Part shown: positions 6,123-51,395 of the stretch, piece after piece
How positions within the stretch are numbered: the first letter of the stretch is position 1
How the letters are laid out: each line of letters opens with the position of its first letter
Origin: Takakia lepidozioides
Taxonomy: Eukaryota; Plantae; Bryophyta
Reading direction: 5' to 3'
Assembly (NCBI GenBank): GCA_030704615.1
Contig: CM060734.1
Coordinates: 21,514,001-21,578,000, forward strand
Length of the DNA: 64,000 nucleotides
Program-made: the position numbers and the translations under genes
The notes under the pieces: generated by a model
Told to the model about the DNA's origin: nothing
Databases searched by the model: none
What the model saw: the letters and a program-made list of their open reading frames with translations, nothing else

Positions 6123-6163
6123 TTAGAGTTCAGTACGCGATCGTCCTTGGGATTGGCCTCATC

Positions 6164-13495: not shown

Positions 13496-15120
13496 TTGCA
13501 TCTCTTAGCACAATCTGTCACTGCACCCAAGGTCAGTCCCCTGACTCCTGCGCAATCTGCTCATCTTGATCAAGTTCTAACTGATATCAAAATAGGCTCT
13601 GGTCTCACTGAAAATGAAAGGTCTCGTCTATATCGTGTTATTCGTGACAATCTTGATGTTTTCAGTGCTGGTTCTCATGATTTGGGATGTACCGAGGTTC
13701 TTCATCACGACATTATCACTAAAGGTAGCCCTGTCAAACAATATGTTTATAGAGAGAGCGTCAAAGAGCGCGAAATTATGCAAATCGAACTAACCAAGAT
13801 GCTGGATGCAAGAGTTATTAAACCCTCTATTTCCCCCTGGGCCAGCCCCATCGTGTTGGTTGCCAAGAAAGATGGTACCACCCATTTCTGTGTTGATTTC
13901 CGACGTCTCAATGCCCTAACAAAAAAAAATGTATATCCTTTACCTCGCATTAATGATACTTTGGATCAACTCAATGGTGCCACTCTCTTCTCTTCCTTGG
14001 ATCTTGCTGCGGGTTTTTGGCAGGTTCCACTCACAGAGTCAGCCAAGGAGAAAGCTATGTTTACTTGTAAGATGGGCCTCTTTCAGTTTGAAACCATGTC
14101 TTTTGGATTATGTAATGCTACTGCCACCTTTCAACGTCTCATGGATGTTGTTCTAGGGAACTTGCGCTGGGAGTATGCATTAGTATATGTTGATGACATC
14201 AACGTTTACTCAGCTGACTTTGATTCTCACATGCTGGATCTGAAGCGCGTTTTGTGCAGGCTTAGAGGAGCCGGTCTCAAAGTGAAAGCCAAGAAATGTG
14301 ACATGTGCATGACGGAGCTTCATTTTCTTGGCCACCTTCTCTCAGCCCAAGGCATTAGCCCTGACCCTGCCAAAATTCAGGCTGTCTGGGAATATCCTAC
14401 TCCACGTGACAAAAATTGTGTCCGTGCTTTTCTTGGGTTAGCCTCTTACTATCGTCGTTTCATTAAACATTTTGCTCACATTGCCGCTGCGCTTAATCAG
14501 TTGTTATGCAAAGATGTTCGCTTTCTTTGGGGCAAGTCCCAAATCACTGCTTTTGAGAAACTCAAAATTGCCCTCACCAATGCACCCATTCTGGTCTTTC
14601 CTGATTTTTCCCTGCCATGCTTCTGACCTGGCTGTTTCAGCTATTCTATGCCAAAAGAGAAATGGCACGGAACATGTGGTGGCCTATGCTTCCAGGCGGT
14701 TTGACAAACATGAAAAGAACTATAGTATCACTGATAAAGAGGGCCTTGCAGTCATTTTTGCCAGGGTGAAACATTTCCGGCAGTATCTCCATGGCTGCCC
14801 CTTTGTTATTCAGACTGATCATCTTCCATTGAAGGCTCTCAAAACCCCACGAGCACTCTTGGGACGCTTGGCTTGGTGGTCACTTACTCTTCAAATGTTT
14901 GAGTACGACATTGAGTATAAGAAGGGCAAAGCCAACAGCAATGCTGATGCTCTCACACGCACTGAGACTAAGTCCTCTGACCCTTATGTTACCTTAGATG
15001 ACCTTGCACACTGCTTACCATCTGGTGCTTCACACTTGCCTTCTTCCTCTCCTGACGGGTCCAATTTACTTGCTTTGTTTGCCACTGTTCCTTTTCTTCC
15101 ACCTGATCTCATGTCTGAAT
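13496..15120 (+). pseudogene. pol: RT-RNase H of the outer Gypsy
   Basis: SPWASPIVLVAKKDG, CVDFRRLN, LDLAAGFWQ, YVDD, VVAYASR, QTDHLPL. Confidence 0.95.
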
Positions 15121-15614
15121 GGGATTTGCTCTCCTTTTCTGCTGGTTGAGGTTGGTTTAGAGGTTGTACTGTCACGGTCATATTCTAGGTATGATATCAC
15201 TCTCTCTTCTCTGATTGAACTGTCCATTTCTCCTTCTAGTTCTGGTTTTGGCACTGAATCCTCTCCATAGGGAAATCTGCTTCTCTACTTCATTGTCCTT
15301 GGTTGCATCTTCATGAAGTCTCCCTTGTCATTCAGTTGAGCTGAAAGCCTTCCCCTGGAGATCACTGAGGCGGACACTCTGTTAGGCTCACACTAACCCA
15401 AGGGCTGGCTATGGCAGCTGCAACCATGGAGGACCTACTTTACCAAGCCCTCCTCCAGAAGTGTAAGACCAACACTCATCTGTCGGGCCTCTCTTCCCTC
15501 TCCTTAGGCAAGTCAACTATCATCTCCCCTCTCATCGGGAGGATGGCTCCATTAAGATTCGGACCTTATACCAAAAATCCGGGTAATGTAAATAACCGAA
15601 ATTAACCAAATTCC

Positions 15615-18144: not shown

Positions 18145-21100
18145 ACGATAGTGAGATGGCTTGAAATTTGGAATTCAGATCAGACAGTGAAGGACCTGAA
18201 TCAGTTCCCGAAAAACACAATCCAGCCTGGCACGAAGGTGGAGGGCATCAGTGACACGGTGTTTGAAACCTGGCTTTACAAGGCCACATTTTGGAGTCAG
18301 GTATGTATCTTCTCTAGTGCCTACCTTCACGCAATTCTGCAATGTTTTTTCGGAGTGGAAACCTGACAGATGTTTCCTTGGCAGCTGGAGAAGCGCGCCA
18401 TACTAGTGCTCGAGCAAAATTTGAAGGACTTGAATATTTCAATGGTTTCCTCACCACAGATGACCTTAGAGGCTTACATTCGGAAGTGGAAAAGGCTCAC
18501 CTGGCGATACTGTTTTTTCCGGGAATTCTCGAAGGAGTGGAACATTTTGAGGTCCAACGATTTTGACAGTCAGGTTGGGGGTGAGTGGGCCATGATGCGG
18601 ATTGTCTACAGATGCACTCTCATATGCCCATCCTTGTATTTCATTGCGATGATCGTTGGCGATCATCGCAATTTTCTGTTGCTTACTGTGACCAACTCCA
18701 ACAGACAGGGCCGTTCCCAGGCTGCGAAGTCATTCTCATTCATGGAAGGAAGTGATGATTGGCACCGATCATCACTTTCACTACTGTAAGCTTTTGCAGA
18801 GAATCCTTCATTTCACCCAGAATAGTGAAGAACATTGTTTTGCTTTCGTGTTTCAGTCCTACACCTTTCCCACATTGGAAATTGGATTTTTCATCAAAAT
18901 GTGATGATCGGCGGCGATCATCACATTCTCTCGTTCTGCAGTGTGGTTCTTGCAAGGGAGTTGGATATCCATGTGCAGTCTCTCTCTTTAGGGAATGTAC
19001 TGATGATTGGCGGCGATCATCACATTCTCCTATTTTGTGAATTGACATTTTGGGAGTTGCTTTGGGGTTGCGAGTTTGCACGTACACAAAATATGTGCTC
19101 ATGGAGGGAAAACACTTGAGCGGCGTCCCTGATTATCTCGACATGTGGTCGGATCCTGCCAATGACCCAACCCTGTACAGAGCCGGGATTTTGAGGGACT
19201 GGAGTCCTGCCCATTTCCAGGACTGCGGATGGTACCTTGACTGCCCTCCTGAGCACACGACGTTTCAAGAACAACACATGAAACATATGAACAACCATGC
19301 GGAATGCTGGCGCCTCTCGACGACGACGAGTACCAGAGAAATATAGCTGCATTGGCCACGAAGGAACCTGCCCGGCAGGGAACGCCTTAGAAGGGCAAAA
19401 AGGCGGGGCGTAAGGTGAAAGACAAGGATGCAAAGGGTTCGGAGGTTATCACCAAGTCACTTGCCAAGGTAAAAGAGAAGGAGAAGGAGAAGGAGAAGGA
19501 AAAATATAAGGAAAAGGACAAAAACATGACCGCTGGGAGGTATACCGGGACTATTGAGTGCGTTTTCGATGCCAGGCCACACCCTTCCCAAGCGGACTTG
19601 CCAAGGGGAGATTAAGATTGTCAATGAGGGATGGCTGGCCATGATGCAGGAAGAAAGGGTACTCGGGTGTACCGTCGCCGACTTGGGACGACATGATCTC
19701 TTTCCTTAATCTGGTGAGAATCTTTCTTTTTGTCTGGGTGCAATGAAAGTGTAATTGCCAACATCGGTTTGTGTTTGTCTTCTTCCCTCTTTTTCGATGG
19801 TTCTCAAATTGGGCTTGTCTGTCGCAGGTGAGCACTGGGCCCTCCTACGTTTGCGGTGTGCAGAAATCCTTCGCCGCTGACATGGTCATTCTGGACATCC
19901 CGGACGGCCAGCCAGTTCCTGATGTTCCTCCAAAGGACGAGATGCCAACCTGGAACAAATTCGATGACAACTACTGGAGTTGGGTGTTCGGGTTCTGCAA
20001 TACTTTCTTTTCGGATGCAGGAACTCTTCTGCTGTTTCAGTCTTGTGACAAGGAGAGTCGTCGGGCATTGGCATCTTACCTGAAGTCGTCTGGGTTTGAA
20101 GTTCTTCGGACATGGAATTGTGTCAACATCCTCTACCTTGCGAAAGGGGGTTGTCATGGACAGCTGGTACGACTTTCCCATCCTGACTGAGCTTTTTTCA
20201 CTAGTGTTCTATATTTGTAGTGCCTTGCTCTTGCAGAATTTCCCTTAGGAGACCAGACAGCACTCCCTGGAGAGGTGCAAGGGAGAGAACCCCAGCGTTC
20301 ATGCAAACTCTCTTGGAGTCATACAACCACCATTCGGCACGGGTGGTCGACCTCTCCGTATCCACAGGTTCATTCTCGCCCTGTGTTTTAATTTTTTATT
20401 TCATCTTTGCTTTTGGCAGCCCCTCTAACCTGTTTATGTATTTTTGTTTGAGGCAGGTGCGACTTACCATGCTTGCAAGGCAGGCGGAAGAAGCCTTTTG
20501 GGCATGGATGGGGACTCGGACCTATTCAAGAGTGTCCTCCTCCCCCTTCTGTCCGGCTCAACGTCGAGCACACAGACTGAAAAGATTCAAATCCGGAATG
20601 ATGAGGATCCCGAAGACAATCAGGTCGACAATGACTTTTCATGTGAGAGTGTCTGCCATGGACTTCTCATTTGTCTTTGGGTGCTATGTTAGCGCGCAAA
20701 CATCATTTTATGAGTAATATCAATTTTCTGGGTCTCCCTTGCAGGAAAGGCAACTGTGGGTCTTTAGGAGCCTCCATGATGTGGGACGATTCGGTATTCG
20801 ACAGCCCCCTGCCCAGTTTCGTGCTTCCTGTGTATGCGGATGCAATGGCACTTCGCATGTCCGAGGCTCCATCCCCTGACCCCATAATGTTTGCTCGCGG
20901 GTGTAGAGTAGATATCCCAGATCCGGAGTTCTGAAATTCTTAGACTTGGATGCAGAGGATGCGGGGATATGTTATGCTGAGTCCGAGTCAGATTGAGCTT
21001 CACAGTTTCTATGTACTCTTTTCATCCTCATAAAAGAATTTTGACTTGTTCCGACTGTTCATTTGTCCCAAGTAGGAACGGAATCTTTAATTACAAAATA

Positions 21101-21575
21101 TACATTCAAGGGTTGACATGGCCCACATGATATTGACAGACAAGAAAATCCAACAAAGTTTGCAATTGCTTTCAGGGAGAAAACTTCATCAATCCTTCGT
21201 AGTGTTCGCACTCATTCATCTTACATTCATCCATCCTGCATTCATCAATCTTTTGCGTTGTTCGCACTCATCCATGTTATATTCATCCATTCTACATCCA
21301 TCCATCCTACATCCATCTAATGTTTTCATCCCTCTTTCATCACTCATTCATCCACTTGCACTACTTACTACGCTATTTGAAAACTGTACAAGGGAGGAAT
21401 GCCCACATTGTGTTATTATGCCATCGTGCGTGTTTCCGCGGTAATGGGTGCTCTTCCGCGGAAATAGACCCTGCTTCTTCCCGAGCGGGATGGGCCCACG
21501 CCGACGTGGCGTGAGCCTGGATGTGCTCACATGCTCACACGCTCATGCGGCCAGGCTCACGCGGAGGCGTCCCTG
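18145..21575 (+). mobile_element. Element A: DNA-transposon-like unit with CAGGG terminus carrying an amino-methyltransferase-like gene (5' end lost)
   Basis: Ends in ...CCAGGCTCACGCGGAGGCGTCCCTG (21575) with GCTCAC/GTGAGC subterminal repeats; homologous throughout to inverted element B. Confidence 0.7.
18150..20934 (+). pseudogene. Multi-exon gene with C-terminal beta-class N6A/N4C DNA methyltransferase-like domain (copy A)
   Basis: Approximate exons 18150-18300, 18370-18611, 19080-19713, 19828-20166, 20237-20367, 20457-20646, 20745-20934, mostly GT-AG. Motifs VILDIPDG, FSDAGTLLLF, GFEVLRTW, ERTPAFMQTLLES..RVVDLSVSTG/ATYHAC..GRSLLGMDGD. Confidence 0.7.
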
Positions 21576-23089
21576 CTTCGAAAGCCAGGTAAGCCCCAAA
21601 TCTGTGCCCCAAGGATCACAATGATTGGAAGTAGAGTTGGCTGGCAGCAGACTTAGCAGCCCCACCGACTTCTCCCAATTGATCTTTAGCCAAGATGCAT
21701 GGCAGAAGTAGTCCAGAAAATTCAAAGCTGCGGACACATTCGAGGAAGAAGAATTGTCAATGAAAAGCGTGGTGTCGTCCACATACAGGGAGGATTTTAT
21801 AGAGGGTCCAATGAAGGGGCATGGGGAATGGATAGGCCCATAGAATCATTACGATTATCCATCAGATGTCCCAAGCCATCAGCGGCTATAAGAAAAAGAA
21901 AGGGAGCGAGGGGGCAACCCTGGCGAACAGATCTGAATAGCGGGAAAGACTTTGAAAGGACTCCATTGATCAATACCTTGCTGGATGCTGAGGATGGCAC
22001 AATACGAACCCAAGATAGGAAGTTCCCGGTGATCCCCGAGGCCTCAAGAGCTCCGAGAAGGTAGTCCCAATTAATGTTGTCAAAAGCCTTATGAAAATCC
22101 AGCATCAGACGCGCCAGGGGTTGTTGAGCAATAGCAGCAGAATGGAGGGCTTCGTTGGTGAGCAATATGTTATCCAGGATCATCCTACCTTTGAGAAATC
22201 TTGTTGGTTCAGGCCTAAGGAGCTTAGGCAGCAGGGGCTGCAGGCGCTGAGCTAAGGCCTTGGCAAGGATTTTATAAGTAGAGTTCAAAAGCGTAATAGG
22301 CCTATAGTTGCCCAGGTCATCCCTATTGCCTTTCTTGTAAATCAGGGTAATCACTCCTTGCGATAATTGAGATGGCATGATTCCTTTTGCAAGGATGTCA
22401 TTTGCCAAATCAAGCAAATCTTGAGCAATGCAGTCCCACATTGCCTTGAAGAACTCCACCGGAAGGCCGTCTAATCTTGGAGTTTTCATAGAACTGAGTG
22501 ATTCAATGGCATGCAACAGCTCCATGGATTCAAAGGACTTAGAAAGCAAGGCTTGGTCAGCAGCAGATAGCGTATTAGGGAAGGAGAGAAGAACCTCGTG
22601 CCTCGAGGCTTGGGAGTGGGAGGTGTCCAGAATTTTGGAGAAAAGAGCGGAGAAATGCAGAGCTGCGACCTCTGCCATTTCCTTGGGCTTGCTGAACTGT
22701 TGCCCAGAAGAATCTGAAATAGAGCTGATTATCGTGGCCTCCCTCCTATGTTTTGCCTTTTGAAAAAAGTATGCGTTCATCTTCTCTCCTTTGAGAGACC
22801 AATTAACCCCGGCTTTGATCCTCAAAAAGTGGTCTTTCTTCGCCTCCATAGACCTAAGATTTCTCTTTGTAGCCAGGTATGAGTCCATAGCAACAGGGTT
22901 TTGAATGCCCGCCTCCACCCTTTTATGGCAATGCATTAGGCATTTCGACAAGGCCTTGGACCCCTTGACCGTCATTACCGCCGGCACTAGAGGAGGCAAC
23001 CACAATGCTAGTATCTCTGCTCTCCACAAAAACTTCAAAATCCCTATTTCCCCCATATACAAATGCTTCAAAGCCATCCACTTGACAGC
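21576..23089 (-). mobile_element. LINE (L1-like) ORF2 reverse transcriptase fragment
   Basis: GLPVEFFK, NYRPITLLN..YKILAK, LDFHKAFD, VRQGCPLAP, YVDDTTLF, LKINWEKS. Confidence 0.95.
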
Positions 23090-23849
23090 CAGGGATGCCT
23101 CGGCGTGAGCCTGGTCACGTGAGCGCGTGAGCGCAACTGCGCTCACGCCACGTCACCTTGCGCCAATGCCACGTCACGGGGCTCACTCCACGTCATCACA
23201 CGTGAAGGCCGCGTCACCACGCGCCCAGAAAGAAGTGGAGTGTATTCCCGCGGATTGGCACCCTTTACCGCGGAAACAAGCTGGACGACATAATAAAAGG
23301 CATTGAATAAAGGATGGATGAATGTACAGTTGGATGATAAACATATGGATGAGTGTGAAAAATGAATGTAGATGGATGAATGAGGGATGGATAAGAGTAA
23401 AATGGATGAATGTATAATGGATGTTGAGCAATGACAAAAATTCATGACAGGAAGATGCATGACCAAAACTTTTGACGAATGCACAACGTATATGAAATGA
23501 GTGTGGAAGGTTTGTGGGGTGGATTAAAGAGTACAGAGGATGAATGTACAATGGATGTTGAACAAAGGAAAAAATTCATGAATGGAGCACGCATGAATAC
23601 ACTGTAGATGAATGCACAATGGATATGAGAAGAGTCAGGGAGGTTTGTGAGATGGATTCATACATATTGCAATTTAAATGAAAGTTGATTATGTGATTAT
23701 TATTTGTTCTAAAGGAACAACTACGGTGGAGGAAGGGGATTCAACGTTTTCCAGATAGTATGAAAATGAATATTAAAAGAATATAGTTCAGTCTGACTCA
23801 GAGTCAGTACAATGTATCCCCGCTTCCTCTGCATCTAAGTCTAAGTATT

Positions 23850-26800
23850 TTAGAACACCGGATCCACGCTGGATACACCTACGGCTGGGCAGTAAAAAGT
23901 CAGGGGATAGGTAGCCGTGTGAAGTGTCATTGCTTCGGCATAAACATAAAGCAGAAAATTGGAAAGGGGGCTGTCGAAAACAGACTCGCCAGAAATGACT
24001 ATATCTCCTGAAGATCCACCGCTGCCTTTCCTGAAAGACAGCCTGAAAAAGTTATTACTGTAACTTTGATGTTATTGAGAAATTGAGTATGGCTCCCAAA
24101 GAGGGTTTAGCACTTACTCACATGAAAAGTCGTTGTCGACCTGCTTATCTTCGGGATCGTCATCATTTCGAATTTGAATCCGATCAGTCTGTGTGCCTGA
24201 AGTGGAGCCAGACAAAAGGGGGAGGAGCACTGTGTTGTAGAGGTCAGAATCACCCTCCATGCCAAAAAGGCTTCTTCCGCCTGCATGCATGGTAAGTTGC
24301 TCCTGCACCAGACAGGAGGACATGAACAGTCTGGTGGGGGGGATTTAAGCAGATGAAACTGTTGAAAGAAAACCAATTCGGAAGGGAAAGAACGAACCTG
24401 TGGACACAGAAAGATCGACCACCCGTGCAGAGTGGTGGCTGCATGACTCCAGCAGTATTTGCATGAACGCTGGGGACTTTTCCTTTGCACCTCTCCATGG
24501 AGTGCCATCTGGTCTCTTCAGAGTCTGACTAGACTGCATGAAGTTGTACAAAATGTCATCGACATGGGGCTCATAGGGGGGGTTGACGAAACAACCCTGG
24601 TCAGAAATCTCAAAGCTGCGGATGGAGGATGGTGTCTTGGAGGTGCGAATCCTGCGCAGGCAGATCGCCTCGAACATCCTTGTCTGCCAAAGATAGCAGG
24701 TTAGTGTGGTAAACACAATCTATAGTGGAAGTGTGTACATCGGCTATTCAGGACTCAGACACAAAAAAATCATTTTTATCACGAATCGGTGATGATCGGT
24801 GTCGATCATAACAGATTTTACTAGAGTGGAGCTGCAGAGAACATTGAAACTCATCATGAAAGCACAAGCAAAAGGGAGACGGCATACTAGCTGACCAGGG
24901 AAACCCCCTTTCACAAGGTAGAGGCTGTTCACACAATTCCAAGTGCGCAAAACTTCAAACCCTGAAGACTTGAGGTATGATGCCAATGCCCGACGACTAT
25001 CATTGTCACATGACTGAAAAAGCAGAAGTGTCCCTGCATCAGAGAGGAAGTTATTACAGAACCCGAACACCCAACTCCAGTAGTTGTTTTCAAAGAACGA
25101 GACTGAAATACTACCAACGAAACTTTCAGAGAAAAAAGAAAGAAACTGGAATTCTCACCAGATTGAGGAATGAGATTATATTGTCCCAGGTAGGCGAAGG
25201 CACCCCAGTGTATCCTCTCTTTCGACTTTGCATCATCGACAACCAACCCTCATTAACAATTTTCATCTCTCCTGCCGAATCAGAACGGGAAGGGTGTGGC
25301 TTGGCATCGAACACGCACTGAACAGTGCGGGTATATCTTCCAGCAGTAAAGTCCTGCCCACTCTCCATCTCCTTTTCTTTCTCCTTCCCATTGTCCTTTT
25401 CCTTCTCTTTGGACTTGTCTTTGTCCTTTGGCTTTACTGGTGAGATGGCTATGACATCAACAGCCTTGTCTTTTGGTTTGCGGCCTGCCTTCTTTTCCTT
25501 CTGCGGCATTCCCTGAGCATCAGGCTCCTTGGCAGCCAATGTTGCTATGTTTCGTTGGTACTCTTTGTCAGTCAAAGGCGCCAGCATCTCAGCGTTATTG
25601 TTCAAGTATTTCATATACTGTTCTTGAAAGGTCGTGTGCTCCGGTGGGCAGTCAAGGTACCACCCACAGTCTCTGAAGTGAGAAGGACTCCAGTCCTTCA
25701 ATATCCCTGCAGTATACATGGTTGGATTGTTTGCAGGGTCCGACCACATGTCAAGATAGTCTGGAATTCCGCTCAGGTGATTTCCTTCCATAAGCACATA
25801 TTTCATGTACCTGAAAAAAAGGAGATAAATCCCAACCCACCAAAGCACTCAGTGAGTAAGATGCAAGTAGAACAGAATGAAAGAAACATAGAATGAAATG
25901 GCTCTGAGAACTGCTCCAAGGACCTTTCAGGACCACACGACTGCTCCAGATGTGAATGTCGTCAACGCCATTCAAAACATTCCATTCAATGATACTGTAA
26001 ATACACCCTAATCCACGTGAATGCAAACTATCGTTTTGGAATGACACAGACATAGAAGTGAATGTTGTCAACGACATTCACTTTGGATTTGTGAATACAC
26101 TCCTAATCAAGCCTAATTATTCCTCAAATGAAGCAAAATCAAAGGATGGAAATCATAAACTCGAGTAAGGAACCCTCCCGGAAAACTCAATGCACATTCA
26201 TAACAAACATATCACTGAGGACCTCACAACAACACTGTATGTGAATGACGTCAACGCCATTCACAAAAATACCAACAAGGAACCAATTACTTAGCTCCCA
26301 ATCCATGTAAATTCAAATTGTCGCTGGTGAAGAATACAGACACAGAAGTGAATGTCGTCAACGACATTCACTTTGGATTTCTCATATCAGAGCTTATCAA
26401 GCCTCCAGATTCCTCGCAAGAGGCAAAAACAATGCAGAACAACTGAATGTCTGCATTGACATTCAACAAAATAAAGTGAGGAACCCTCACTGTAAACTCT
26501 ATGGACATTACAAAAATTTACATAATTCTGAGGACCTCTCAACAACTCCGGATGTGAATGTCGTCAACGCCATTCAAGTACATTATCAATTCTAATCAGG
26601 GACACTATAATTACACCCTTAGATCCTAACCAGGTGAATTCATATACTCGCTTAAGAATGACTCAGACAAAGAAGTGAATGTCGTCAACGACATTCAATC
26701 TGGATCTATGATTGTAATCCTTATGAAGCCACATTTTTTCCCAAAAAAAGCAGTAGAGTTTCCAGTATGACATTGCACCTGTACACAACTCGCATCATGG

Positions 26801-26880
26801 CCCACTCTCCTCCAACCTGACTGTCAAAGTCGTTGGACCGTAAAATGTTACCATCTTTGGAGAACTCCCGGAAAAAAGGC
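23850..26880 (-). pseudogene. Amino-methyltransferase-like gene, copy B
   Basis: Same exons as A. Lacks the DIPD segment but keeps MFEAICLRR...VNPPY...EKSPAFMQILLES..VVDLSVSTG. Confidence 0.7.
25945..26700. repeat. Intronic hairpin repeats GTGAATGTC-GTCAAC-G(A/C)CATTCA
   Basis: About 7 copies near 25952, 26058, 26241, 26348, 26445, 26554 and 26675, set in longer repeated units. Confidence 0.85.
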
Positions 26881-28451: not shown

Positions 28452-28951
28452 NNNNNNNNNNNNNNNNNNNNNNNNNNNNNNNNNNNNNNNNNNNNNNNNN
28501 NNNNNNNNNNNNNNNNNNNNNNNNNNNNNNNNNNNNNNNNNNNNNNNNNNNNNNNNNNNNNNNNNNNNNNNNNNNNNNNNNNNNNNNNNNNNNNNNNNNN
28601 NNNNNNNNNNNNNNNNNNNNNNNNNNNNNNNNNNNNNNNNNNNNNNNNNNNNNNNNNNNNNNNNNNNNNNNNNNNNNNNNNNNNNNNNNNNNNNNNNNNN
28701 NNNNNNNNNNNNNNNNNNNNNNNNNNNNNNNNNNNNNNNNNNNNNNNNNNNNNNNNNNNNNNNNNNNNNNNNNNNNNNNNNNNNNNNNNNNNNNNNNNNN
28801 NNNNNNNNNNNNNNNNNNNNNNNNNNNNNNNNNNNNNNNNNNNNNNNNNNNNNNNNNNNNNNNNNNNNNNNNNNNNNNNNNNNNNNNNNNNNNNNNNNNN
28901 NNNNNNNNNNNNNNNNNNNNNNNNNNNNNNNNNNNNNNNNNNNNNNNNNNN
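28452..28951. other. Assembly gap (500 N)
   Basis: Run of N. Confidence 1.
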
Positions 28952-31479
28952 CTATGGACGATTACCACGAGTTCAGGTGAGGACATGAAGCAGAGATTGA
29001 GGAGTGGAGGATGTATTGGTCACCTGACTACGTCTCCATTACTCGACGCACGACGCGACCAGTAGCTGCATCTCGGTACCAATAGTTCACTGCCAGCACT
29101 AGTAGTGGAGCAAGTAGTGCTGGTACTTCTGTAGGTGGTACAGTTCAAAAGGTGCTACTACTCCTCCTGCCACTACTAAACACATGTGCCATAGATTCAA
29201 CCGTGGTGGAGTTCTTCCAGAGTTGCGGAGGATAACCAAAGGTGTACGGACAGAGAAGCTGCGAAGTTTGCAAGACTTCAGCGCAAACCCAGTGAGAGCA
29301 TGCGAGAGGCGTACACTCGTATGAGGCGCTTGATAAGTGTGACCCAAGGGGTTACTGAAGCTCAGGCAATCCAGTTTTGGTATGGAATTCTGGACAAGGA
29401 GCTCAAGAGAAGGGTGCGAGATGCAACTTGTTACAAGCAGCCCAACTACATTAGCAGATGTGTTTCTGCTGGCTGAGCGGATTGAGCTCAACATGGTGGA
29501 GGAGCGAGTTGTCACCATTGGATTTGGCAAGGACATGCCTGCACGAGGCGCAGCTGCCAGCCCACAAGCACAAGGGTGCCAGCAGCGTGGTCAGGGGGGC
29601 AAGGTTTCCAACCCAAGTTCCATGGAGCTTACAGGGGACCTCAGGTGCAGAGGCCCGTGGCATCTTTTGCAGGCCAACAGCAACCAGGGGTGATATGTTG
29701 GACATGTGGAGGACCCCATGTCAAGAGAGATTGCCCAGAGAGTGGCAGAAGGCCGGCACAAGCACAGCCTGCACAGTTGCAGTGTGGGCATTGTGGCAAG
29801 TATGGGCATGGAGATGCCCAGTGTTATGACTTGCATCCTGAGTTGCGCCCAGGCCAGTTCCAAGGGAAAATGGTGGCCGGGGGCGAGGTGGACAACCCAG
29901 AGAGGACGAGTTGGTCGGGGCAGAGGTGCAGGCCAAGGGCAAGCTCAACATGGCCAAGGACGCGGAGGTCAGGGTGTTGATCAAGGCATGGCCAACCGGC
30001 TTCAGCAGCTAGAGCAGAGGCTCGCTGCCATGGCTATAGCTCAGGCGGTACCGGCTCCCAGGCGGGATGGTCCACCTCCTGCTCCTGAGGGAGGAGATAT
30101 GGGAGGCATGGGATTTATGTGCGGAGCAGCACTACCACTAGAGCAGGTGGAATCTGCTGCAGCCGTGACTCGAGGAGCAGCACGAGTTCCTGAGCCACGA
30201 GGTGCAGAGGTGGAATTGGATCCACAGCGTGGGGAGGCAAGCCGTCAGGCGAGGCTTCCTCAGTCATTCACATTGGCGGAGACTGTATCGACGCCATCCA
30301 TGGCACCTAGTTCTCGCCCGACTGTTCCGAGGCGGAGGTTACTATGCCATTGGGGAGAGCTACACGTGCAGCATTGACTCCTGCTGCCAAGGCTAGTGCG
30401 GCTGGTGTGTTATTGGGGGCAGCCACCTCTGTGTGTCAGGCCCCACTGTTCTCGGCAAATGATTGCCACGCCGGGGGTAAGGCCAGCTGCAAGTGTTCAG
30501 ACTAGCAGCAACACTCTGTGAGAGTGGGGAGGTCATTTCATCTTCTGCGGAGTTAGTGGAAGGTGTAGTGGCAGAGGGATCCTCGGATTTGAGGGTCAAG
30601 ACTGCCACGGCTGCGCCCTGGCAAGCTGCAGCTGCCAGGTTGACGGAGCTGCCAGCTAGGCCAGCCTTTGAGCGCGCCATGGTGACACCTGGAGTTGTCT
30701 TTGTTAGACAACCAGGGAGGCATTTTCACTTTGAGTGGACCAGCAGGCAAGAAGTACCGGCCACTGCGGGTCTTGTTGGACTCGGGAGCTCAGCCACTGA
30801 TGTTGGGCAGAGCTGCTATTGCAGGTTTGGGCCTCATGGAGGCGGATATGGAGCTTGCCTTTCCAGATACAGACATATCTGGGAGGATCAGAGCAGGCTC
30901 GGGGCATGACACGGCATCAGTTGGCCATTAGACTGCAGCCGGATCATCCTATCGATGGCTCAGTAATGCGAGCCAAGGCCATTGTGACAGACAAGTCTCT
31001 TACGATGTCCTCGTTGGTGGGGCAGTGTTATACCCATGGGCTTCACCCTGGACTTTGGGAGGAGTCAGCATCCTACATGCCTGGATGGCAGTCAGGCGAT
31101 GGTCGCCGTGCACAACTCCCTGTGACATTCAGTGGGGGTATAGCGGCTGCCCAGCGGGGCAAGATGCCAACACTAGCCGCCTTTACAGCTGCAGTTAGTT
31201 GCCTGGAGAGTTGCTGGAAGGCAATGCCCATGCAGAGGATGTGCCACCTCCAGCAGAGCAGGACGACATGCATGGTATGGCGGAGTTGCCTGCCATGGTT
31301 GCTCACACTCCATTGTGGGGTACGAGCAAGGATTTGCAGCAGGTTGCTGATCGACGGGTACAACAAGCCTGGGTAGAGGCTTTTGTTCCGTCAGGAGAGG
31401 AAGAGAGTGCGGGTATTGCACCAGGACCACCTCAGTTGTCACCATTGGATACCACACCTATTGTGTGGCAGTATCCGGA

Positions 31480-32430
31480 TGAAAGCATTTGCCTTCTGGA
31501 CTTGTTTGGCAGGATCAGCACCGGATTGGCTGCTGTGCTACAGGCAGGTGTACGAGTTCGACGTTACCTGTATGTGGAGAGGATGAGAGACTGCACGACG
31601 CGTCTCACTGCGCCATGTTGCTCAGTTGGTACAGCAACCCTGACTTGTTGCCATTGTCTGCAGTTCGTGGATTCAACAAGCCTTGCCAGCAAACATTTCT
31701 TGCTGGGGGCGCAGGATTTAGAGTAGGTTGGCTCCATTGATCTGGTAGTGGCAGGTTGGCCCTGCCAAGGGCATTCATTAGCCGGGCATGGCAATGGATT
31801 GCGAGACTCGAGGACGGGTCTGTTTTGGGAGATGGTGCGGATTTTGCGCTGCTTGCAGCTTCATCAAGCTGTATCTCCAGCATACATCTTGGAGAATGTA
31901 CCACTGATGGGTGATTCTCGGGCCAGGGTGATGGCCAGTGTGCATCAAGTCCGGTCGTGGCTTGGGTCAGTAGTGTTGCTGGATGCAGCTGCAGTGGGGT
32001 CACGGGCTCATTGTCCACGGCTTTGGTGGACTAACTTGATGCCACCCGCACTAACTCAAGCGTGCATTTGATGGGGTGCAAAGGCCAGCACACTTACCGT
32101 GGATGGCATTTTGGACACAGGGAGGCAGTCTCAACGTGTGAGACACGATGACCGTTCGCCTTTGGCAGTGGTCAACAGGGTGGGTCAACCACGAGCAGCA
32201 TTACCTACACTGCTCAGCTTCCAAGGATCCATGCTTTTCGGGATGGTGGACCTGGCCTCCTGTGGGATGCTCAGTTGCAACAGTTAGTGGAGCCTAATGC
32301 CGACGAGCGAGAGCGGGCTATGGGGTTTTCCACTGGGACCACGGCGGTGCCTTCTCTTTCTGAGGCATCACGTCGCAGGTGTTGGGGCAAGCAATGGATC
32401 TCAATTGCTTGACCTGGATTATCAGCTTGG
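31480..32430 (+). pseudogene. C5-cytosine DNA methyltransferase domain (DNMT3-like motif order) inside pol
   Basis: Motif I LLDLFGRISTG, II YVE, IV DLVVAGWPCQGHS, VI ILENV, VIII HCPRLWWTNL, IX EPNADERERAMGF, X LGQAMD; a few frameshifts and stops. Confidence 0.93.
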
Positions 32431-33878
32431 CTATGGCTGAGCAACGTAGAGTGCGGAGCGCACTTCCCTGGACGGTCTCTCTGCCTACCCGAGACGGTAC
32501 AGGCAGCGAGTGGGGGCGAGCCGGTGAGGACCACGGGGTGTAGACATCCATGGCACACGTGGGAGGTGCTCGAGGTTCAGAGGGAGTTGGCAGCCAAGCA
32601 GCTGTGATGGATGAGGTTGGGGATTCTTCTCGGGATGAGGAGGTTCTCAATGATGAGATGATGGGGCAGGATGAGGCATTGTCATTGACTGAGCAGGAAG
32701 GAAGTACTGCTCAAGAGGTTGCAGCATAGCAACCACGGGACGCGTCCTCTACCTCTAAGCCCACTGGACTTAAGGTTGCAGTCACGGAGGACAATTGGGA
32801 GCCTGACATTGGACCCATTGTCACCGGAGGAGAGAGAGACGACGTATACGGCGGTTCCTGAGGGCTTACAGGAATTGCTTTGCCTTCAGTTTGAAGGACT
32901 TGGGAGCACTGAAGGGTCAAGAGATCCGTATTGAGTTGGCCACTGACACGCCAATCTTTCGGAGACCCTATAGATACAGTGACATGGAGAGGTCTTTGAT
33001 TCAGATGAGGACTCAAGATCTCTGGGAGGCAGGTTTGGTGGAGCTCTCTGGTGGAGAGTATGCTTCAGCCACAGTGATGCCAGCTAAGAAGGATGTCTAT
33101 GGCAATTGGACGGAGAGACGTATGTGCGGTGATTACCGGCCTGTAAATCGTCAGACAAGTCCGATAGGTATGCCATGCCAACACCAGAGGAGATCTTTGA
33201 TGCCATTGGGCATTCCAAGGTCTTTAGCACGTTGGATTTACGATCCGGATATCACCAGTTGCCGATCAAGGAGGCGGATAAGCAAAAGACGGCATTCTGG
33301 GGGATCAATGAGCACGGGAAGGATTGCCTATACCAGTGGCGGTTCTTACCATTTGGGCTTAAAAACGCTCCCGCTGAGTTTCAAAAGAGTCATGGACAGG
33401 ATTCTAGCAGGGGTGGAGTTTGCTCGGTGCTACATAGATGACATCATCATCTTTAGTGCTACGGTGGAGGAGCATGAGAGACACTTCAGGGGGTATTTGA
33501 GCGCTTAAGGACGCACGGATTGAAGTTACATCCGGGCAAGTGCAAGTTTTTCCACAACCAGATTGAGTATCTGGGTCACATGATATATCTTGGAGGATTG
33601 GGGGTACAGCAGACTAAGGTAGAGTCCATTGCACAGGTTCCACGCCCCACGGATGTGAGCCGAGTTCGAGCTTTCATGGGGTTAGCAAACTATTACAGAC
33701 GGTTTGTTAAGGGATTCAGTGCCATTGCAAAGGCTCTAACCAAGCTGACCAAGGTGGACCAGGAGTGGCAGTGGGAAGATGAGCAAGAACAAGCTTTTCA
33801 AGAGCTCAAGGCGAGGTTGACCTCGGCGCCCATCTTGAGACGACCTATCAGGGGGCGTCCTTTTCAGCTGCATACAGA

Positions 33879-35575
33879 TTGGAGCATGCTGGGCTTGGAG
33901 CGGTGCTCACACAGGTGGATGATGAGGGAAGAGAGTTCGTAGTGGCTTATGCTAGCCGCTCGAACAATGCTGCAGAGTCTAAGTATAGCTCATATGAGGG
34001 AGAATGCTTAGCTGCAGTGTGGGCCGTGGCACACTTCAGGTGCTATCTATATGGCAATCTCTTCACCCTTGTCACGGATCACCAACCACTCAAGTGGTTG
34101 ATGGAGTCAGACAAGCTTACGGGGAAGCTTGCACGGTGGGCACTCATCCTTCAAGAGTATGACTTTCAGGTGGTGCATCGACCGGGTTTGGTCAATCGCA
34201 ATGCAGATGGGTTGAGTCGCAATCCATGCACGAGCCAACAGGATGACACTGGAGCTCGGTGGCATGGTGAGACGGACGAGGAGATGGTGCCCGGATGGCA
34301 TGCATCTGCATTTCTGTGTATCTTGGCAGCGGAAGGCCAGGTTGGACCTGCAACAGGGATGACTGTAGATCAAGTGTCTGAGGACCCTGAGGCCAGCAAT
34401 GAGCAAGGTAGCACCAAAGATATACATGAGGATTCAGTTGTGTTGGACTACCTCCGCACTGGAGACACGGCAGCCACTGTGACTGCCAAGGAGAGGGATC
34501 GGATCCTACAACGAGCCAAGAGGTTCAGGTGGGAGGGGACACACCTGCTCCGAGTGTGGGAAGATGGTCGAGTGAGGATTGTGCCTCACCCAACACAGCG
34601 GGCACGGTTAGTGCGCCATGCCCACGAGGAGTTGGGGCATTTTGGGGTGCATCGTACTCATAGTCTACTGCAGGGGCAGTATTGGTGGCGTGGTATGCAC
34701 ACAGAGGTGCAACAATTTGTGGCTAGGTGCATGGTGTGTGACAGGGTGCGTGCTTCATTCAACGCCCCTACTCCACAATTGCACCCTCTTCCGATCATGG
34801 GATTGGGCTACAGGTGGAGTCTTGACTTCGCAGGGCCGTTGCCACTGACCATGCGCCACAACAAGTACGTGTTGGTGATGCTGGAGCACTTCTCCAAGTG
34901 GATTGAATTGGTTCCATTGCCTGATAAGGCTAGTGAGGGAGCTGCGTATGCATTCCTGGATTGTGTGCTTAGCCAATTCGGTGCTCCAGCTGAGGTACTC
35001 ACGGACCAAGGGAGAGAGTTCTTGGGGGAGTTTCAGGCTTTGTGTGACAAAGCCTTGATAGACCACCGCACCACTTCTCGGGATCATCCTGAGGCCGATG
35101 GCTTGGCAGAGAGAGTTGTTCAGACAATAAAGAGGGGTTTGCGCAAGTATGGCTTGCAGAAGGGACACCTAGGAGATTGGGACCTTCAGTTACCCTGGTT
35201 AGCCATGGGCTACAGGTTCAGCAAGCAAGCATCACTTGCCTCCTTCTCACCATACTTTCTTCTCTTTGGCCGAGAGCCGGATTTGCCTACATCCATTCGT
35301 AGAGAAGCTGCTACAGTTCTTAACCTTGACGATCCGGACGTGTGGGCACGTGCATGTGAGCAGCGTGCAGAGTTGTTCAAGAGAGTCATGCCCATGGCTT
35401 TCGAGAACCTTGCCATTGCACAACACCGTGATACGTTGAGGTATGCTACCATACGTGGTGGGGGCTATCGTCCTGGGGTTCGGAGATTCAACCCTGGTGA
35501 CTATGTCTATCTGCAGCAGACTGCTCCTACGACCCTGGATGTGACTGCAGGACGTGTTATTTTGAGGGTTCGAAG
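33879..35575 (+). CDS. RNase H-integrase of the DNMT-Gypsy (long open frame)
   Basis: 580-aa ORF with RH, HHCC zinc finger and DDE core. Confidence 0.9.
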
Positions 35576-35714
35576 GTCTTGCCCTCAGGCGTCTTGGTCT
35601 TGGAGGGTCGGGATGGCATAACTTGGAAGGACCATGTGCGTAATTGTGCGCCATGTCACCTTCCGAACGTCGATGGCAGGATTGACCCAAACCTGGCAGT
35701 GGTATCTGCAGGTT

Positions 35715-35863
35715 TGAGGTGCATGTTGTGTGGGTCTGCTAAAGGGGCAGCCACCATGCTGGTGTGTGATCGATGCTCTAGAGGTTGGCATAGGGGATGC
35801 TTGACTCCACCTCTTGAGATGGTTCCAGATGGGGATTGGTTATGTCCACATTGCATTGGATAG
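35715..35863 (+). CDS. PHD finger at the integrase C-terminus
   Basis: CMLC..MLVCDRC..WHRGC..PPL..VPDGDWLCPHC (C4HC3). Confidence 0.93.
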
Positions 35864-36132
35864 TGGGAGTGGATACAACCATGGAAGGCTAACAAGAAAC
35901 GCAAGGCCCAGCTACTAGGAGACCTTGAACACACGAGATCCTGGCTCAAGTTCACAGATTGCAAGACGGCGACTAACGATGGGGCTACTCTTGTACCCGG
36001 CCTCTTGGTCTATAGAGTTTGAGTACAATAGGGACAGTGATAGAGGACTTAGTATGGTTGTGGCTATTTCATCTTGTAGCTATCTGGAGGTAGAGGGGTA
36101 GAGGGACAGCTATCCACCAGCTAGGGGGCGAT

Positions 36133-36217
36133 TGTGGCAGACTACTTTATTGTGCATATATGTGTGGTGTGGTTTGGACAACGATGTAGTTGTGTAGCGA
36201 TAGGTATGTGCACAACA
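36133..36217 (+). repeat. Very short putative 3' LTR (85 bp)
   Basis: TGTGG...CAACA after the PPT; both ends are homologous to the sister LTR at 50322-50592. Confidence 0.7.
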
Positions 36218-38401
36218 TCTCTGTAACAACACGGGCAATTGCATAAGGTCAAGCCAGACGCCACTCTGGCTTGCAGATGGAGAGACTGTCTCCGGTAACA
36301 GATATTGATAGCGTCGGCGTATTCAAGAGTTTCTTGGAAGAGAACAACTTTGCTTGCAAAACGAGTTTTGACAGGAGTCTTCAGCTTCCGGGTGGGCAGA
36401 CCTGCCTCTATACAAGCCTTGTCCTACTCTTGTCTACCTTTGCCAGACTTCTTAGTCCAGGTAATTGTTTTCTGCAAGGCTGCTTGTGCATCTTTGTGTC
36501 ATTTGTCGCGTACTTGCAGGCTTTGGACATGTAATGTCCAAAGCAAGCACCTACAAATGGTTGTGCAAGTTGCAAATGAGCACATGTAACCACTGAAGAT
36601 AAGGTTGTAGCTAGGGTATTAAGATTGGAACCCTCATCTTTGACATATGCAATTACTTTGTTTGTCAATTGGAATTCTGCAAGCAGGGGTTTAACAATTT
36701 CTACTAGGGCAGTCCCAGCTGTATCAGGAGCCTCGAACAAGCCTACAGTGACATGTCTTGGCATCCACTCTTCATCAATGAAATTCACAACCAACGCGAA
36801 TGTATCAAACCCTGTCCTAGACATCCATAGATCAAATGTAACAGTGACAGTTGCACAACTACCTAGGACAGGCAAAACATAAGTTTCCATGGTTTTGGCA
36901 AGCAAACCTGGGATGTATTCCTTAACCAGCTGTTTGCAGGTTGGGAAACGAATTTTAGGGTCCATGCACATTACTAGTCTACGGAGCCAAGGCGACTCCA
37001 CTGTTAACAAAGCCTCGTAGCCTTTTGCAATGAAAAGGACCAAGTCTTCAATGAACCTCAGCTGAGGAAGGTCGTTCTTTTTGTAACCCCCTTGGCCACC
37101 AAAATACTCCGTGATCACAGATGGAGCAACAGACTTACGCTTCTTGCATTTCACTCTACCCCCTTGTACCCCACATTCAGTAGATTGTAACTCCGCCTTG
37201 TACTTGGCAAAGACCTCTCGATGCTCATTTATGAGATGCTTATTCATGGAGGTGCTCCCATGAGAAGGGCTATATTGCACCAGCCCTTTTCTAGATCTGG
37301 TGGTACTCTGGGAACTCTGTGAGGGCTCTTCAGTATAGTAGTTGTTGTGGCAAATAATGTACCTCATTATTTGCACAGCTTGCACATCAACAACAGACTT
37401 CTGATCGTGAAGAAGAAAGAATGCCCAAACAACACTTGAACGATGGTATGGTACGCAAAAGCGTTGATTCTTGGCAAGAGATGCATACCAGACTCTCCAC
37501 GTCGCTAGGTCTTCCGCAGCTTGAATCTCGTTCCTGCTTTCAGTAGGCTGCAACACCTCTGAGGTCGTGCAAGTGCTATGTTGTTGTTCATTTACAAGCG
37601 TTGTATCACCTGCTTCATCCCCAATGCAAGCCTCAAAATCACTGAAAGACATGCCCTAATCCATCTCAACAGAAATTACAGTATCCCAAAAAATACGGCC
37701 ACTTAAGGGAAACCCCTGCAAAGCTTAGGCAGACCACTACTAAAGTTTCAATTCACTATCCAGTGAAGATGAGGGCTGCTAGTATGAGGATTGTGAGGGT
37801 AAACCATTTAAGCATTGACACCAGCCACCAAACTAACAAAAGAATCAGTACACATTAACAAGGCATTTTGGAGTTCTGATCTCTAGTTCCAAAGCAAGAG
37901 CAGGTGGGCTGTAACACAATCATAATCGTTGGCAGAAGAATGATCCAGGTTAGAAGAAGCCGGCCCCAGAAGAAGGAAATCACCTGTCGAGATTGCATAC
38001 ACATAGCACGTACGTCCCTAAGAGCCTTCATGAAGGCAGATTGTTTGCTGCAAGGCCAAAGACTAGAATATTGCTGCAATTCGCAGCCACTACTTTGCTC
38101 ATTGGAGGAGCCGCACCCTACTGCAGCTTAGGCCCAAAAATCTAACGCCATCGCCATATTGATACCCAGCTCTGTCCACCATAAAGTTGCCGCAATACTG
38201 GTATCGTGACCACGCTGCACTTGCACATACCCAGACCGGTATGGTATGTGTGGGGGGGAATCCTAAAGACATACTCCCCCCAGTACGTGTATGACATGGG
38301 TACACTGGTTTCGTTCATACCCGACTGGTATGTTCTTCAATATATATATTTATACCTGTATTCCATACCTAGGTCCAACCAGGTATACCAGTCCAACATT
38401 G
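36218..38401 (-). mobile_element. hAT DNA transposon (transposase 37652 to 36218), cut by the DNMT-Gypsy
   Basis: BED-like N-terminus, VTFDLWMS, YVKDEGSNL, CFGH, KTPVKTRFAS; TIR CAATGTTGGACTGGTAT at 38401. Confidence 0.88.
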
Positions 38402-42397: not shown

Positions 42398-43943
<1,546 letters not shown>

Positions 43944-50321: not shown

Positions 50322-50592
50322 TGTCGTGCGCATACATATCGTTACACAACTACATCGCGGTCCAACACCACACAACACATGTGCACACCATACACTAGTA
50401 TATCACTAGTCCACCACTAGTCACTAGTCCAACCACTAGGCTGCCACTAGTCAGTCACTAGGCTGCCACTATGTTACCCACTATGGCAGTCACTAGTCCA
50501 CCACAATTTATCTAGTATACCACTAGTCCACCACTAGTCCAACCACTAGGTTGTCACTATGTTGCCCACTATGCAGTCACTAGTCCACCACA
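50322..50592 (-). repeat. 3' LTR expanded by CACTAG tandem repeats
   Basis: Minus-strand TGTGG...CGACA ends; CCACTAGTC-type repeats at ~50390-50590. Confidence 0.75.
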
Positions 50593-51095: not shown

Positions 51096-51395
51096 CGCAT
51101 GCACACGAAGTCGGGACAGGTACACCCCGGAAAATTTCCCACCGTCACCTGATAGGCCCTGTCGTGCAAAACAGACCCAGATGTGACCAAAGTATAAACC
51201 CGTCCATACCCAGGTGAAGGTACTTCCATAGTTCCTGTTACCCGAGCCTGAAGTAGTCTGGCCGATTCCACCTTCGCATCGTGATCAGGCCCCGAAGCCA
51301 CCCGATGCACTGTTTTGCCATTCCTTCTCGTGGGATGCGAAGTATCATCTGGAGGAAGCACCATAGCAGCAAGGCCACCAAGAGTCCACGCCACA
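51096..51395 (-). other. 300-bp foreign insert encoding a partial SWIM-like zinc finger
   Basis: Absent from the sister copy; reads YQVTVGNFPGCTCPDFV, out of frame with pol. Confidence 0.6.

Follow-up and report, generated by a model that had tools for sequence, protein, structure and literature searches.

What is a DNA methyltransferase doing inside a retrotransposon of a land plant, and is it a lasting part of the element or an accident of one copy? The role of retrotransposon-borne DNMTs has been a question since 2018, and part of the difficulty is that the hosts known to carry them do not lend themselves to experiments. In the window, the whole 64,000-nucleotide stretch of Takakia lepidozioides DNA analysed here, positions 28952-36217 are a decayed member of a high-copy Gypsy family, with the order Gag-protease (PR)-DNMT3-like methyltransferase (MTase)-reverse transcriptase (RT)-RNase H (RH)-integrase (IN)-PHD finger. 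We are almost certain that this is a Gypsy element of the KnitGypsy-Dnmt3 lineage and that the MTase is present throughout its family.

All features of this copy lie on the forward strand. A gag remnant with two CCHC-type knuckles (28952-30400) was recognized from translations and from a tblastn match to the N-terminus of the Marchantia protein P0005, and P0318 gave a weak score with the Pfam Retrotrans_gag profile. The 5' end of the element, comprising about 60 N-terminal gag codons and the left repeat, sits inside a gap of 500 N (28452-28951), so that left repeat, primer-binding site (PBS) and target-site duplication (TSD) are invisible in this copy; a search to the left of the gap found neither the left repeat nor the remainder of an interrupted hAT-like ORF. 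The aspartic protease (30700-31130; catalytic D-S-G at 30779-30787, LLDSG) is frameshifted and holds the same position upstream of the MTase in 54 of the 62 related loci with room for it. The profile search called for in an earlier, sequence-only reading recovered PF00145, PF00628 and rve in the element. DNA_methylase (PF00145) matched 31727-32068 (E 3e-12) within the MTase (31487-32430), and RVT_1 matched in three frame pieces over 32807-33939, corresponding to a frameshifted RT with a YIDD motif (32790-33800). Matches to RNase H, Integrase_H2C2 and rve lay inside 33783-35618, marking RNase H (33850-34230) and an integrase with an H2C2 zinc finger, a DDE core and a C-terminal part (34590-35620). 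Pfam and the related loci thus give the Ty3/Gypsy order Gag-PR-RT-RH-IN with a DDE integrase. The copy closes with a polypurine tract (PPT, 36123-36131), which also precedes repeat B in relatives, and with repeat B itself (36132-36217), the right element end, reading ...GCACAACA here and ...GCACGACA in relatives. No A-B repeat follows B, and of the terminal sequences only PPT and B are visible in this copy.

The window copy is dead: a stop at 31724 and frameshifts interrupt the MTase, the RT side is frameshifted at about 32830, and further lesions lie in gag, PR, RT and the IN-PHD interval. Sequence comparison within the window revealed a second copy of the family on the reverse strand (50322-54039; 91% over RT-IN). 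It is cut inside the RT and hence lacks the MTase, carries an insertion of about 300 bp in the integrase tail, and terminates at the same B end. Elsewhere in the window, a Gypsy at 6545-10716 carries a chromodomain, and a 14-3-3 exon nearby (42398-42880) has a Sphagnum protein as its best named full-coverage match, at 95% identity, with 91% for Klebsormidium; its tree did not resolve.

Judged by its motifs, the MTase is DNMT3-like and of the C5 type. Translations placed motifs I (LDLFGRIS, 31496), IV (GWPCQG, with PCQ at 31760-31768), VI (ENV, 31892-31900), VIII (AHCPRLWW, 32006), IX (ERERAMGF, 32305) and X (to 32399) in normal order. Because the motifs are unpermuted, the domain is not DRM-type: motifs VI-X do not stand ahead of I-V, and DRM2 matches span just motifs I-V (E 0.004). 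The closest solved matches are DNMT3A/B, both by sequence and by fold, with an AlphaFold model of the domain that is modest (pLDDT 60, low in the TRD region). Pfam and the translations therefore bear out the earlier description of a non-permuted C5 MTase with PCQ, ENV and motifs IX-X between protease and RT. The alterations it had pointed out in motifs I (FGRIS) and VIII (HCPR) are indeed present, and they look like decay when set beside the intact motifs of relatives. There, the catalytic Cys is kept in 65/65, the ENV Asn in 65/65 and the second Gly of motif I in 60/61, and five Marchantia ORF1 proteins (1278-1281 aa) have all five tested motif patterns. The family MTase is an intronless, non-permuted Dnmt3-like domain with its key residues kept; it is the window copy itself that is broken.

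Our data support the view that the MTase is a stable, selected component of the family. In host DNA runs the MTase bins were covered like the RT bins (run X2, 0.57-0.99 M versus 0.94-1.09 M, flank 260-500; run X5, 585-990 versus 470-1310, flank under 6), these values being sums and not copy numbers. The same domain order recurred in 80 related MTase-anchored loci, which are not independent because they come mostly from one family; L081, one distant match among viral contigs with an unrelated context, was left out of all counts. Where there was room, RT lay downstream in 45/48 loci, IN in 29/33 and PHD in 20/25, and Gag lay upstream in 36/39. This fixed position rules out an MTase confined to the window copy as a separate insertion with its own TSD. 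When the window was compared with distinct relatives, four loci with insertions or deletions being omitted, pS and pN were 0.74 and 0.22 for the MTase (n=65), 0.74 and 0.18 for RT (n=45), and 0.74 and 0.34 for PR (n=46). Saturated pS with low pN is the signature of purifying selection on the MTase between lineages, and together with the invariant Cys and Asn it rules out a neutrally evolving family consensus without PCQ/ENV. Within the large family, shared changes gave N/S of 0.64 for the MTase, 0.65 for PR, 0.37-0.44 for RT/RH/IN, and 1.39 for PHD, the last resting on 6 changes; these ratios reflect constraint that has been weaker in recent times, with methyl-C decay blurring the signal. The MTase value and the broken state of the window copy are what a copy-specific insertion or neutral passenger would have in its favour. 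Against run coverage, a fixed family-wide position, the pN/pS pattern, congruent MTase and IN trees and intact Marchantia ORFs, such an origin is extremely improbable, and we rejected it. Inserted copies show decay at CHG and CG, so in the end they carry methylation as other elements do. CpG depletion was considered as a signature of self-methylation and is not distinctive: the element's CpG o/e of 0.42-0.59 is no lower than the 0.39-0.50 of three further elements within the window.

More telling for how the element works are two features that the earlier reading had missed, namely a stop after the MTase and permuted repeats. An in-frame stop followed by CAAC(C/T) stands after the MTase in 49 of 50 distinct loci; its conservation is read from relatives plus the single window copy. 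The window reads TAG CAA CCA (32727-32735), a CAR-YYA readthrough-type context (PMC3542737), in frame with the start of RT. Because this stop is conserved in the family, MTase and RT are assigned to separate ORFs; ORF1 ends here as Gag-PR-MTase, and RT-IN likely depends on readthrough. Homologous ORF1 proteins terminate 90-94 aa beyond motif X. The stop is kept in three families whose linkers otherwise do not align (the window family, L001 and the large family), and the tail leading to it has, in 42/49 loci, a length that is one of seven different multiples of three. TAG has become TAA in 14/47, a share of 30% that only 1 of 54 like-context columns reaches in the decay background, a pattern more in keeping with a stop than with a splice acceptor; the TAA copies are scattered over the tree, as decay would give, and do not form one lineage. 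RNA structure 3' of the window stop was not significant (z -0.9 and 0.0), and values of -1.5 to -4.6 in five relatives, scored against mononucleotide shuffles only, were not relied on. In Klebsormidium and several other relatives a single ORF runs on with no such stop, so not every member of the lineage needs a high MTase dosage.

The data on repeats, PBS and TSDs come from relatives. These have TG...CA ends (TGTC...GACA) and 4-bp TSDs, exact in 6 of 9 two-ended loci and with one mismatch in one more, but permuted repeats instead of two plain LTRs. The layout is A...B-A-B in 6/17 tails and A...B in the remainder, with no B upstream in any of 24 left ends. Five of the seven A|B junctions are clean joins, L031 retains a PBS copy and L056 has an insert of about 20 nt; they look like joined cDNA ends, which would imply integration from a circle. 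An 11-nt PBS, found within two mismatches in 19/22, is complementary to sequence 29-31 nt past the TATA box, a spacing seen in 14/22. With the PPT ahead of B and the PBS behind A, the expected LTR is B-GC-A.

The earlier reading also placed a C4HC3 PHD finger at the end of the integrase (35720-35863), and this holds (PF00628 inside 35501-35860, E 7.5e-11), both here and family-wide; the integrase end carries this finger and not the chromodomain that defines chromoviruses. Its best single-domain matches are KDM5B/KDM5A PHD1, ATXR5 and BAZ2B, and the motif check showed L-x-C-D and a PPL..VP.G.W pocket with no aromatic cage. KDM5 PHD1, ATXR5 and BAZ2 are proteins which we take to be readers of unmodified H3. 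Many H3K4me0 readers have an acidic residue before the first Cys, and the element's PHD has none there, which counts against such a ligand. On balance, we lean towards a PHD that tethers to unmodified H3.

Taken together, we propose a joint explanation, to which we give even chances. A leaky stop would end Gag-PR-MTase, and readthrough to the RT-PHD integrase would set a high MTase:RT ratio, so that the MTase, made as abundantly as coat protein, would be packed at Gag-like levels. Minus-strand synthesis would be self-primed (PMC4600332), as in Tf1, and ordinary strand transfers would yield a cDNA with the LTR B-GC-A at each end. This cDNA could close into a two-LTR or one-LTR circle, in which the integrase would cut the palindrome GACA-GC-TGTC within the LTR to give A...B-A-B or A...B. 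Before insertion the MTase likely methylates the new cDNA, and the PHD likely tethers the integrase to nucleosomes with unmodified H3 tails.

Several steps of this scheme have competitors. RT-IN could come from a transcript spliced at the AG of the TAG, from re-initiated translation or from a subgenomic RNA, all of which leave ORF1 as Gag-PR-MTase. The large-family site reads TTTGCGTAG, which is acceptor-like, and an AUG two codons past the stop leaves room for re-initiation in that family; moreover, strict CAR-YYA occurs in just 4/49 loci, 42 having CAACCC, and some Marchantia gene models connect MTase and RT by a run of residues shorter than their distance in the genome. However, gene models are predictions, ORF2 gene calls begin at differing codons, the tail is open and frame-preserving, TAA is frequent, the window is purine-rich upstream of the stop, and neither the window nor L001 has an AUG downstream of it. 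We consider these routes unlikely, and readthrough of the conserved stop quite probable. Likewise, A...B-A-B could come from linear cDNA with extra template switches, through DIRS-like end regeneration from an internal B-A junction, with A...B produced by later B x B recombination and no need for a circle. This layout equals the DIRS split direct repeats described in PMC5890265, B repeats 340 bp apart could recombine, and in 10 distinct loci the element stops at B, with no A. The A|B junctions, however, vary as joined ends do, PBS remnant included, and the PPT and PBS positions make B-GC-A the expected LTR; the circle route thus appears reasonably likely and the linear one rather unlikely.

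The excess MTase may also act somewhere other than on cDNA: at the nuclear insertion site, on other copies, on host chromatin or on packaged RNA, or it may be a nucleic-acid-binding part of the particle. Enzymes of LTR-element polyproteins normally act within the particle, which counts against such a role, as do the retention of all catalytic motifs and the closest solved enzymes, which are DNA MTases. A further point against it is that related Dnmt3 domains carried by DIRS elements methylate DNA at CG (PMC5890265); the same paper raises RNA-methylation and host-benefit models that would suit action elsewhere. Also in favour of such a role, placement in ORF1 would yield the MTase far in excess of what a particle with a single cDNA calls for, and CpG depletion is not distinct. 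We judge action elsewhere tentative and on the unlikely side, and action on cDNA evenly poised. Most speculative in our proposal are what the MTase acts on and to what end, be it to label cDNA as self or to damp the new copy, and which ligand the PHD binds. A bolder version, which we hold to be doubtful, is that this ancient bryophyte Gypsy lineage departs from the textbook at three steps, with a DNMT3 at capsid stoichiometry via a leaky stop, self-priming, and circular cDNA integrated via a palindrome inside its own LTR, and that the MTase would label the circle and protect the spare palindromes GACAGCTGTC against the element's own integrase. A spare palindrome remains in every full-length inserted copy, and such shielding would explain why methyltransferases recur among retroelements that pass through a circle, namely DIRS and the present lineage.

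If the proposal is true, DDE-integrase integration from a circle would be an exception to LTR circles as dead ends, and the stop leads one to expect the enzyme as a major protein of the particle and not as a minor Pol domain. Marchantia polymorpha, a model that can be transformed, carries near-intact copies, annotated there as hypothetical genes (among them Mp5g06330, Mp5g06860 and MpVg00370). MTase and PHD ORFs of the family inflate host gene counts, and standard LTR finders may miss or misclassify the family owing to its permuted repeats.

Sequence kinship places the element with the KnitGypsy-Dnmt3 lineage of Klebsormidium, reported in 2018, in agreement with the kinship suggested earlier. 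In unrooted trees without a host DNMT3 outgroup, both its MTase and its integrase fall with the Klebsormidium element; the RT tree is poorly resolved. KFL_009030040 of Klebsormidium shares 49% identity over the MTase piece and falls in the same pre-RT group. The element nests among bryophyte elements; named relatives come from Marchantia, Calypogeia and Sphagnum, and also from Haematococcus, whose MTase is placed differently. No vascular-plant name occurs among the named entries of the 72-match and 44-match lists, most entries of which are nameless. Persistence from streptophyte algae was once suggested; the lineage itself extends beyond streptophytes to Haematococcus. Like the earlier reading, our literature search found no paper describing this family in embryophytes.

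KnitGypsy-Dnmt3, as described in the available text of PMC5890265, is alike in having a non-permuted Dnmt3-like domain before RT in a Gypsy element and in its A-coding-B-A-B repeats, seen here in relatives. It has one Pol ORF, whereas here a stop follows the MTase and the hosts are land plants; because this stop separates the MTase and RT ORFs, we file the element as a lineage variant and not as KnitGypsy-Dnmt3 itself. That text does not contain 'PHD', gives no replication mechanism for KnitGypsy-Dnmt3, and reports no activity of the Klebsormidium MTase domain in yeast, a result it calls inconclusive. Added here are the conserved stop with CAACC after the MTase and, in relatives, the self-priming PBS, 4-bp TSDs and A...B-A-B repeats. 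The novelty once claimed for a writer-plus-reader element was overstated, since PHDs are reported to be widespread in retrotransposons (PMC6673714) and the 2026 EpiLTRs preprint (bioRxiv 10.64898/2026.05.21.726589) describes LTR elements with a DNA-methyl writer and a chromatin reader. EpiLTRs differ in combining DAM, a DNMT4-sister DNMT and a chromodomain, occur in Cymbomonas and Euglena, and are set apart from Gypsy-DNMT3 by their authors. Chromoviruses and PHD-bearing retrotransposons (Gypsy-7a_cRei, PMC9940879; REM1, as cited in PMC6673714) likewise have a Gypsy polyprotein with a module that reads histones and presumably steers insertion; the available texts describe no MTase in them, and here the integrase ends in a PHD instead of a chromodomain. 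TMV-type (type I) readthrough (PMC3542737) and the Tj1 gag-pol stop (PMC4600332) likewise separate an abundant product from a rare one by UAG followed by CAA-CYN, but here the stop follows protease and MTase instead of Gag, and most relatives have CAACCC. Split repeats are shared with DIRS/Ngaro elements, which use a tyrosine recombinase, whereas this lineage has a DDE integrase and 4-bp TSDs. Finally, a DDE integrase that cuts a circle palindrome is known from foamy virus, where, in the available text of PMC1180852, the cut falls at the LTR-LTR junction of two-LTR circles, whereas the cut predicted here would fall inside the LTR.

A gag, protease (PR), C5 methyltransferase (MTase), reverse transcriptase (RT), RNase H, integrase and PHD finger were all located on the plus strand at 28952-36217 by translation and Pfam domain search, bearing out the sequence-only reading of an MTase-bearing Gypsy element that ends in a PHD finger. 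The translated MTase has motifs I, IV, VI, VIII, IX and X in normal order and is thus non-permuted, as proposed. Numerous frameshifts disrupt this main copy, as does a stop at 31724 that is absent from 98% of the depth in host DNA run X2; the left end of the copy falls inside an N gap. A second copy of the family (50322-54039, minus strand), cut before the MTase, is 91% identical to the main copy over RT-integrase; its terminal repeat B (50400-50590, minus strand) is expanded by short tandem units to ~270 bp, versus 86 bp in the main copy. A transposase-like pseudogene (36218-37655, minus strand), hAT-like by eye and without a Pfam match, reaches the right end of the main copy and seems to be interrupted by it; its remainder was sought left of the N gap and not found.

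The MTase is a constituent of the family. Its bins have about the same depth as RT bins in host DNA runs and exceed the flank by a factor in the hundreds (these are contig depths added up, not copy numbers). The order around the MTase is fixed in 80 metagenome loci (65 distinct at 98%; nearly all one Sphagnum-like family, plus the single locus L001): among loci with room, RT was in place in 45/48, RNase H in 33/37, integrase in 29/33, PHD in 20/25, PR in 54/62 and Gag in 36/39. Depth and order together rule out an insertion confined to the main copy. A central MTase piece matched 72 longer proteins, the named ones being from Marchantia, Calypogeia and Sphagnum (57-73%), Klebsormidium (49%) and Haematococcus (41%), and a PHD piece matched 44 proteins with the same bryophyte names. 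Neutral evolution of the MTase is contradicted between lineages: synonymous sites of the main copy and its metagenome relatives are saturated (pS 0.74), and pN is 0.22 for the MTase, between RT (0.18) and PR (0.34). Selection shows less strongly within the large family, where shared-change N/S is 0.64 for the MTase, 0.65 for PR and 0.37 for RT. The feature is real, old and selected.

All 65 relatives retain both the catalytic Cys and the Asn of ENV. Both motif alterations first read in the main copy are confirmed: the motif I Gly, changed there, is intact in 60/61 relatives, and the motif VIII Arg, intact in 42/65, is replaced in 21 others by either of its two CpG-decay products; the main copy carries one of these. 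Five Marchantia proteins (1278-1281 aa) contain all five motif patterns tested. The male V chromosome of Marchantia carries Gag-PR-MTase ORFs of full length, MpVg00370 and MpVg00540, which are labelled hypothetical genes. The nearest solved proteins are DNMT3A/3B, both by sequence (query protein P0004) and by fold (a modest-quality predicted model of protein P0002), and we infer the function of the MTase, as of the PHD finger. The latter, whose zinc ligands are intact in relatives, has no aromatic cage and, among single domains, is matched best by KDM5B and KDM5A PHD1, MLL3, ATXR5, PHF21A and BAZ2B, whose PHD fingers read unmodified H3 tails. Its place on ORF2 means that it travels with the integrase, not the MTase, which makes a role in targeting likelier than that of a substitute for the DNMT3 ADD domain.

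On the MTase tree the window element falls in with those of Marchantia, Calypogeia and Sphagnum (support 99/97), and on the integrase tree its neighbours are those of Calypogeia and Sphagnum (98/95). The host is probably a bryophyte. The suggested kinship with Klebsormidium elements agrees with these trees, where Klebsormidium lies outside the bryophyte groups, and with a wider MTase tree (unrooted, 110 classifiable rows, without a host DNMT3 outgroup; split support 0.95 or 0.61 by branch), where 24 pre-RT rows (window, bryophytes, Klebsormidium) stand fully apart from 86 post-RNase H rows, which include Haematococcus. A profile search returned 375 clusters at E < 1e-30. Among the best 150 of these, 86 also carry RT, RNase H or integrase, 46 of 66 integrase-bearing clusters have the PHD, and, in clusters with RT, the MTase follows it in 47 and precedes it in 3. 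By these counts and the tree split, an old green-plant lineage ordinarily combines the MTase with a PHD, and it has the MTase in either of two positions. An RT-RNase H-integrase-PHD protein of the same lineage, P0239 (CAA9586175.1), is labelled uncultured cyanobacterium and probably stems from plant DNA binned with a metagenome.

In the window, the frame leading into RT reads ...EVAA*QPR...DNWEP, with TAG CAA CCA at 32727. A stop plus CAAC(C/T) occupies the equivalent site in 49 of 50 distinct loci with room (35 TAG, 14 TAA), the single exception having an insertion, and lies a multiple of three from the motif X region in 42 of the 49, at seven different lengths. Homologous Marchantia, Calypogeia and Sphagnum proteins stop 90-94 residues past motif X; separate ORF2 proteins of 1033-1044 aa start just before RT, with differing start codons. 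Because Klebsormidium and the homologous protein P0279 have a single ORF, the stop is specific to the clade containing the window element. UAG-CAR-YYA is the type I readthrough motif, and UAA works too, according to PMC3542737. The TAA share of 30% exceeds the 11% decay background for like context, which is more in keeping with a stop than with a splice acceptor, whose AG should not vary. Counter-evidence comes from the dispersal of TAA copies across the tree, from strict agreement with CAR-YYA in just 4/49 loci and, in the large family, from an AUG located two codons past the stop. ORF1 is Gag-PR-MTase by whatever route ORF2 is expressed. Judging by the way Gag:Pol ratios are controlled in LTR elements, an MTase encoded on ORF1 would be produced at Gag levels.

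The relatives open with TGTC and close with GACA, and their 4-bp target-site duplications are exact in 6/9, with one mismatch in another; the two that fail involve a contig end in one case and an altered left end in the other. A 339-bp repeat A stands at the start, and the polypurine tract is followed by a 113-bp B, a 2-nt spacer, A and B in 6/17 tails. Ten further distinct loci, three with target-site duplications, stop at the first B, as do both window copies, and no B precedes the left A in 24/24 loci. The B-A joint reads GACA-NN-TGTC (NN is GC in 3/7, otherwise AC, AC, AT and TC). An 11-nt site directly after the left A, not tRNA-like, was found in 19/22 loci, and its complement sits 29-31 nt past a TATA box in 14/22, an arrangement typical of self-priming (PMC4600332). 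Since the polypurine tract precedes B and the primer-binding site follows A, ordinary reverse transcription would yield an LTR of B-GC-A at both ends. Cutting at the palindrome would convert a two-LTR circle into A...B-A-B and a one-LTR circle into A...B. Recombination between B repeats would also yield A...B copies. The A|B joints, clean in 5/7, with a primer-binding-site remnant in one and an insert in another, resemble joined cDNA ends, and the element may thus integrate through a circle.

Elsewhere in the window, a second decayed Gypsy-type element (12876-15149, plus strand) encodes, immediately before RT, a dUTPase domain (PF00692, E 1e-6), which is uncommon in plant LTR elements. A young chromovirus (5383-12350, plus strand; 728-bp LTRs 98.8% identical, CpG o/e 0.88), whose integrase ends in SH3 and a chromodomain, is nested in an older gag-like ORF (4235-5404). 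A large degenerate inverted repeat (19967-25817 and 18513-26877, arms 72-86%) around a LINE RT fragment (21797-23152) may consist of one repeat present twice in opposite orientation, or of long TIRs. A hAT-type transposase remnant (58645-61015, plus strand), with DUF659 and a weak dimerisation domain, is flanked by degenerate repeat-rich arms (~57100-58100 and 61500-62750). The only host gene noticed is a 14-3-3 gene, whose first coding exon (42398-42880, plus strand) matches Sphagnum at 95% (best named at full coverage), Klebsormidium at 91%, Ceratodon at 87% and vascular plants at 83-88%; a 14-3-3 tree left this exon without a resolved position.

Literature searches on embryophyte occurrence, PHD-bearing Gypsy elements, readthrough, and split repeats or circle integration in Gypsy found no land-plant account of the family, its stop or its integration route; subscription papers and Repbase were poorly covered, so absence is unproven. 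The three text supplements of PMC5890265 that were searched name neither Marchantia nor Sphagnum and list Physcomitrella. Two parts are new and testable: the stop, which places the MTase with Gag, and the proposed integration through a circle. Taken together, the element is a land-plant variant of a described kind, and the A...B-A-B layout of its relatives is that noted for KnitGypsy-Dnmt3, the Klebsormidium Gypsy element with a Dnmt3-like domain (PMC5890265).
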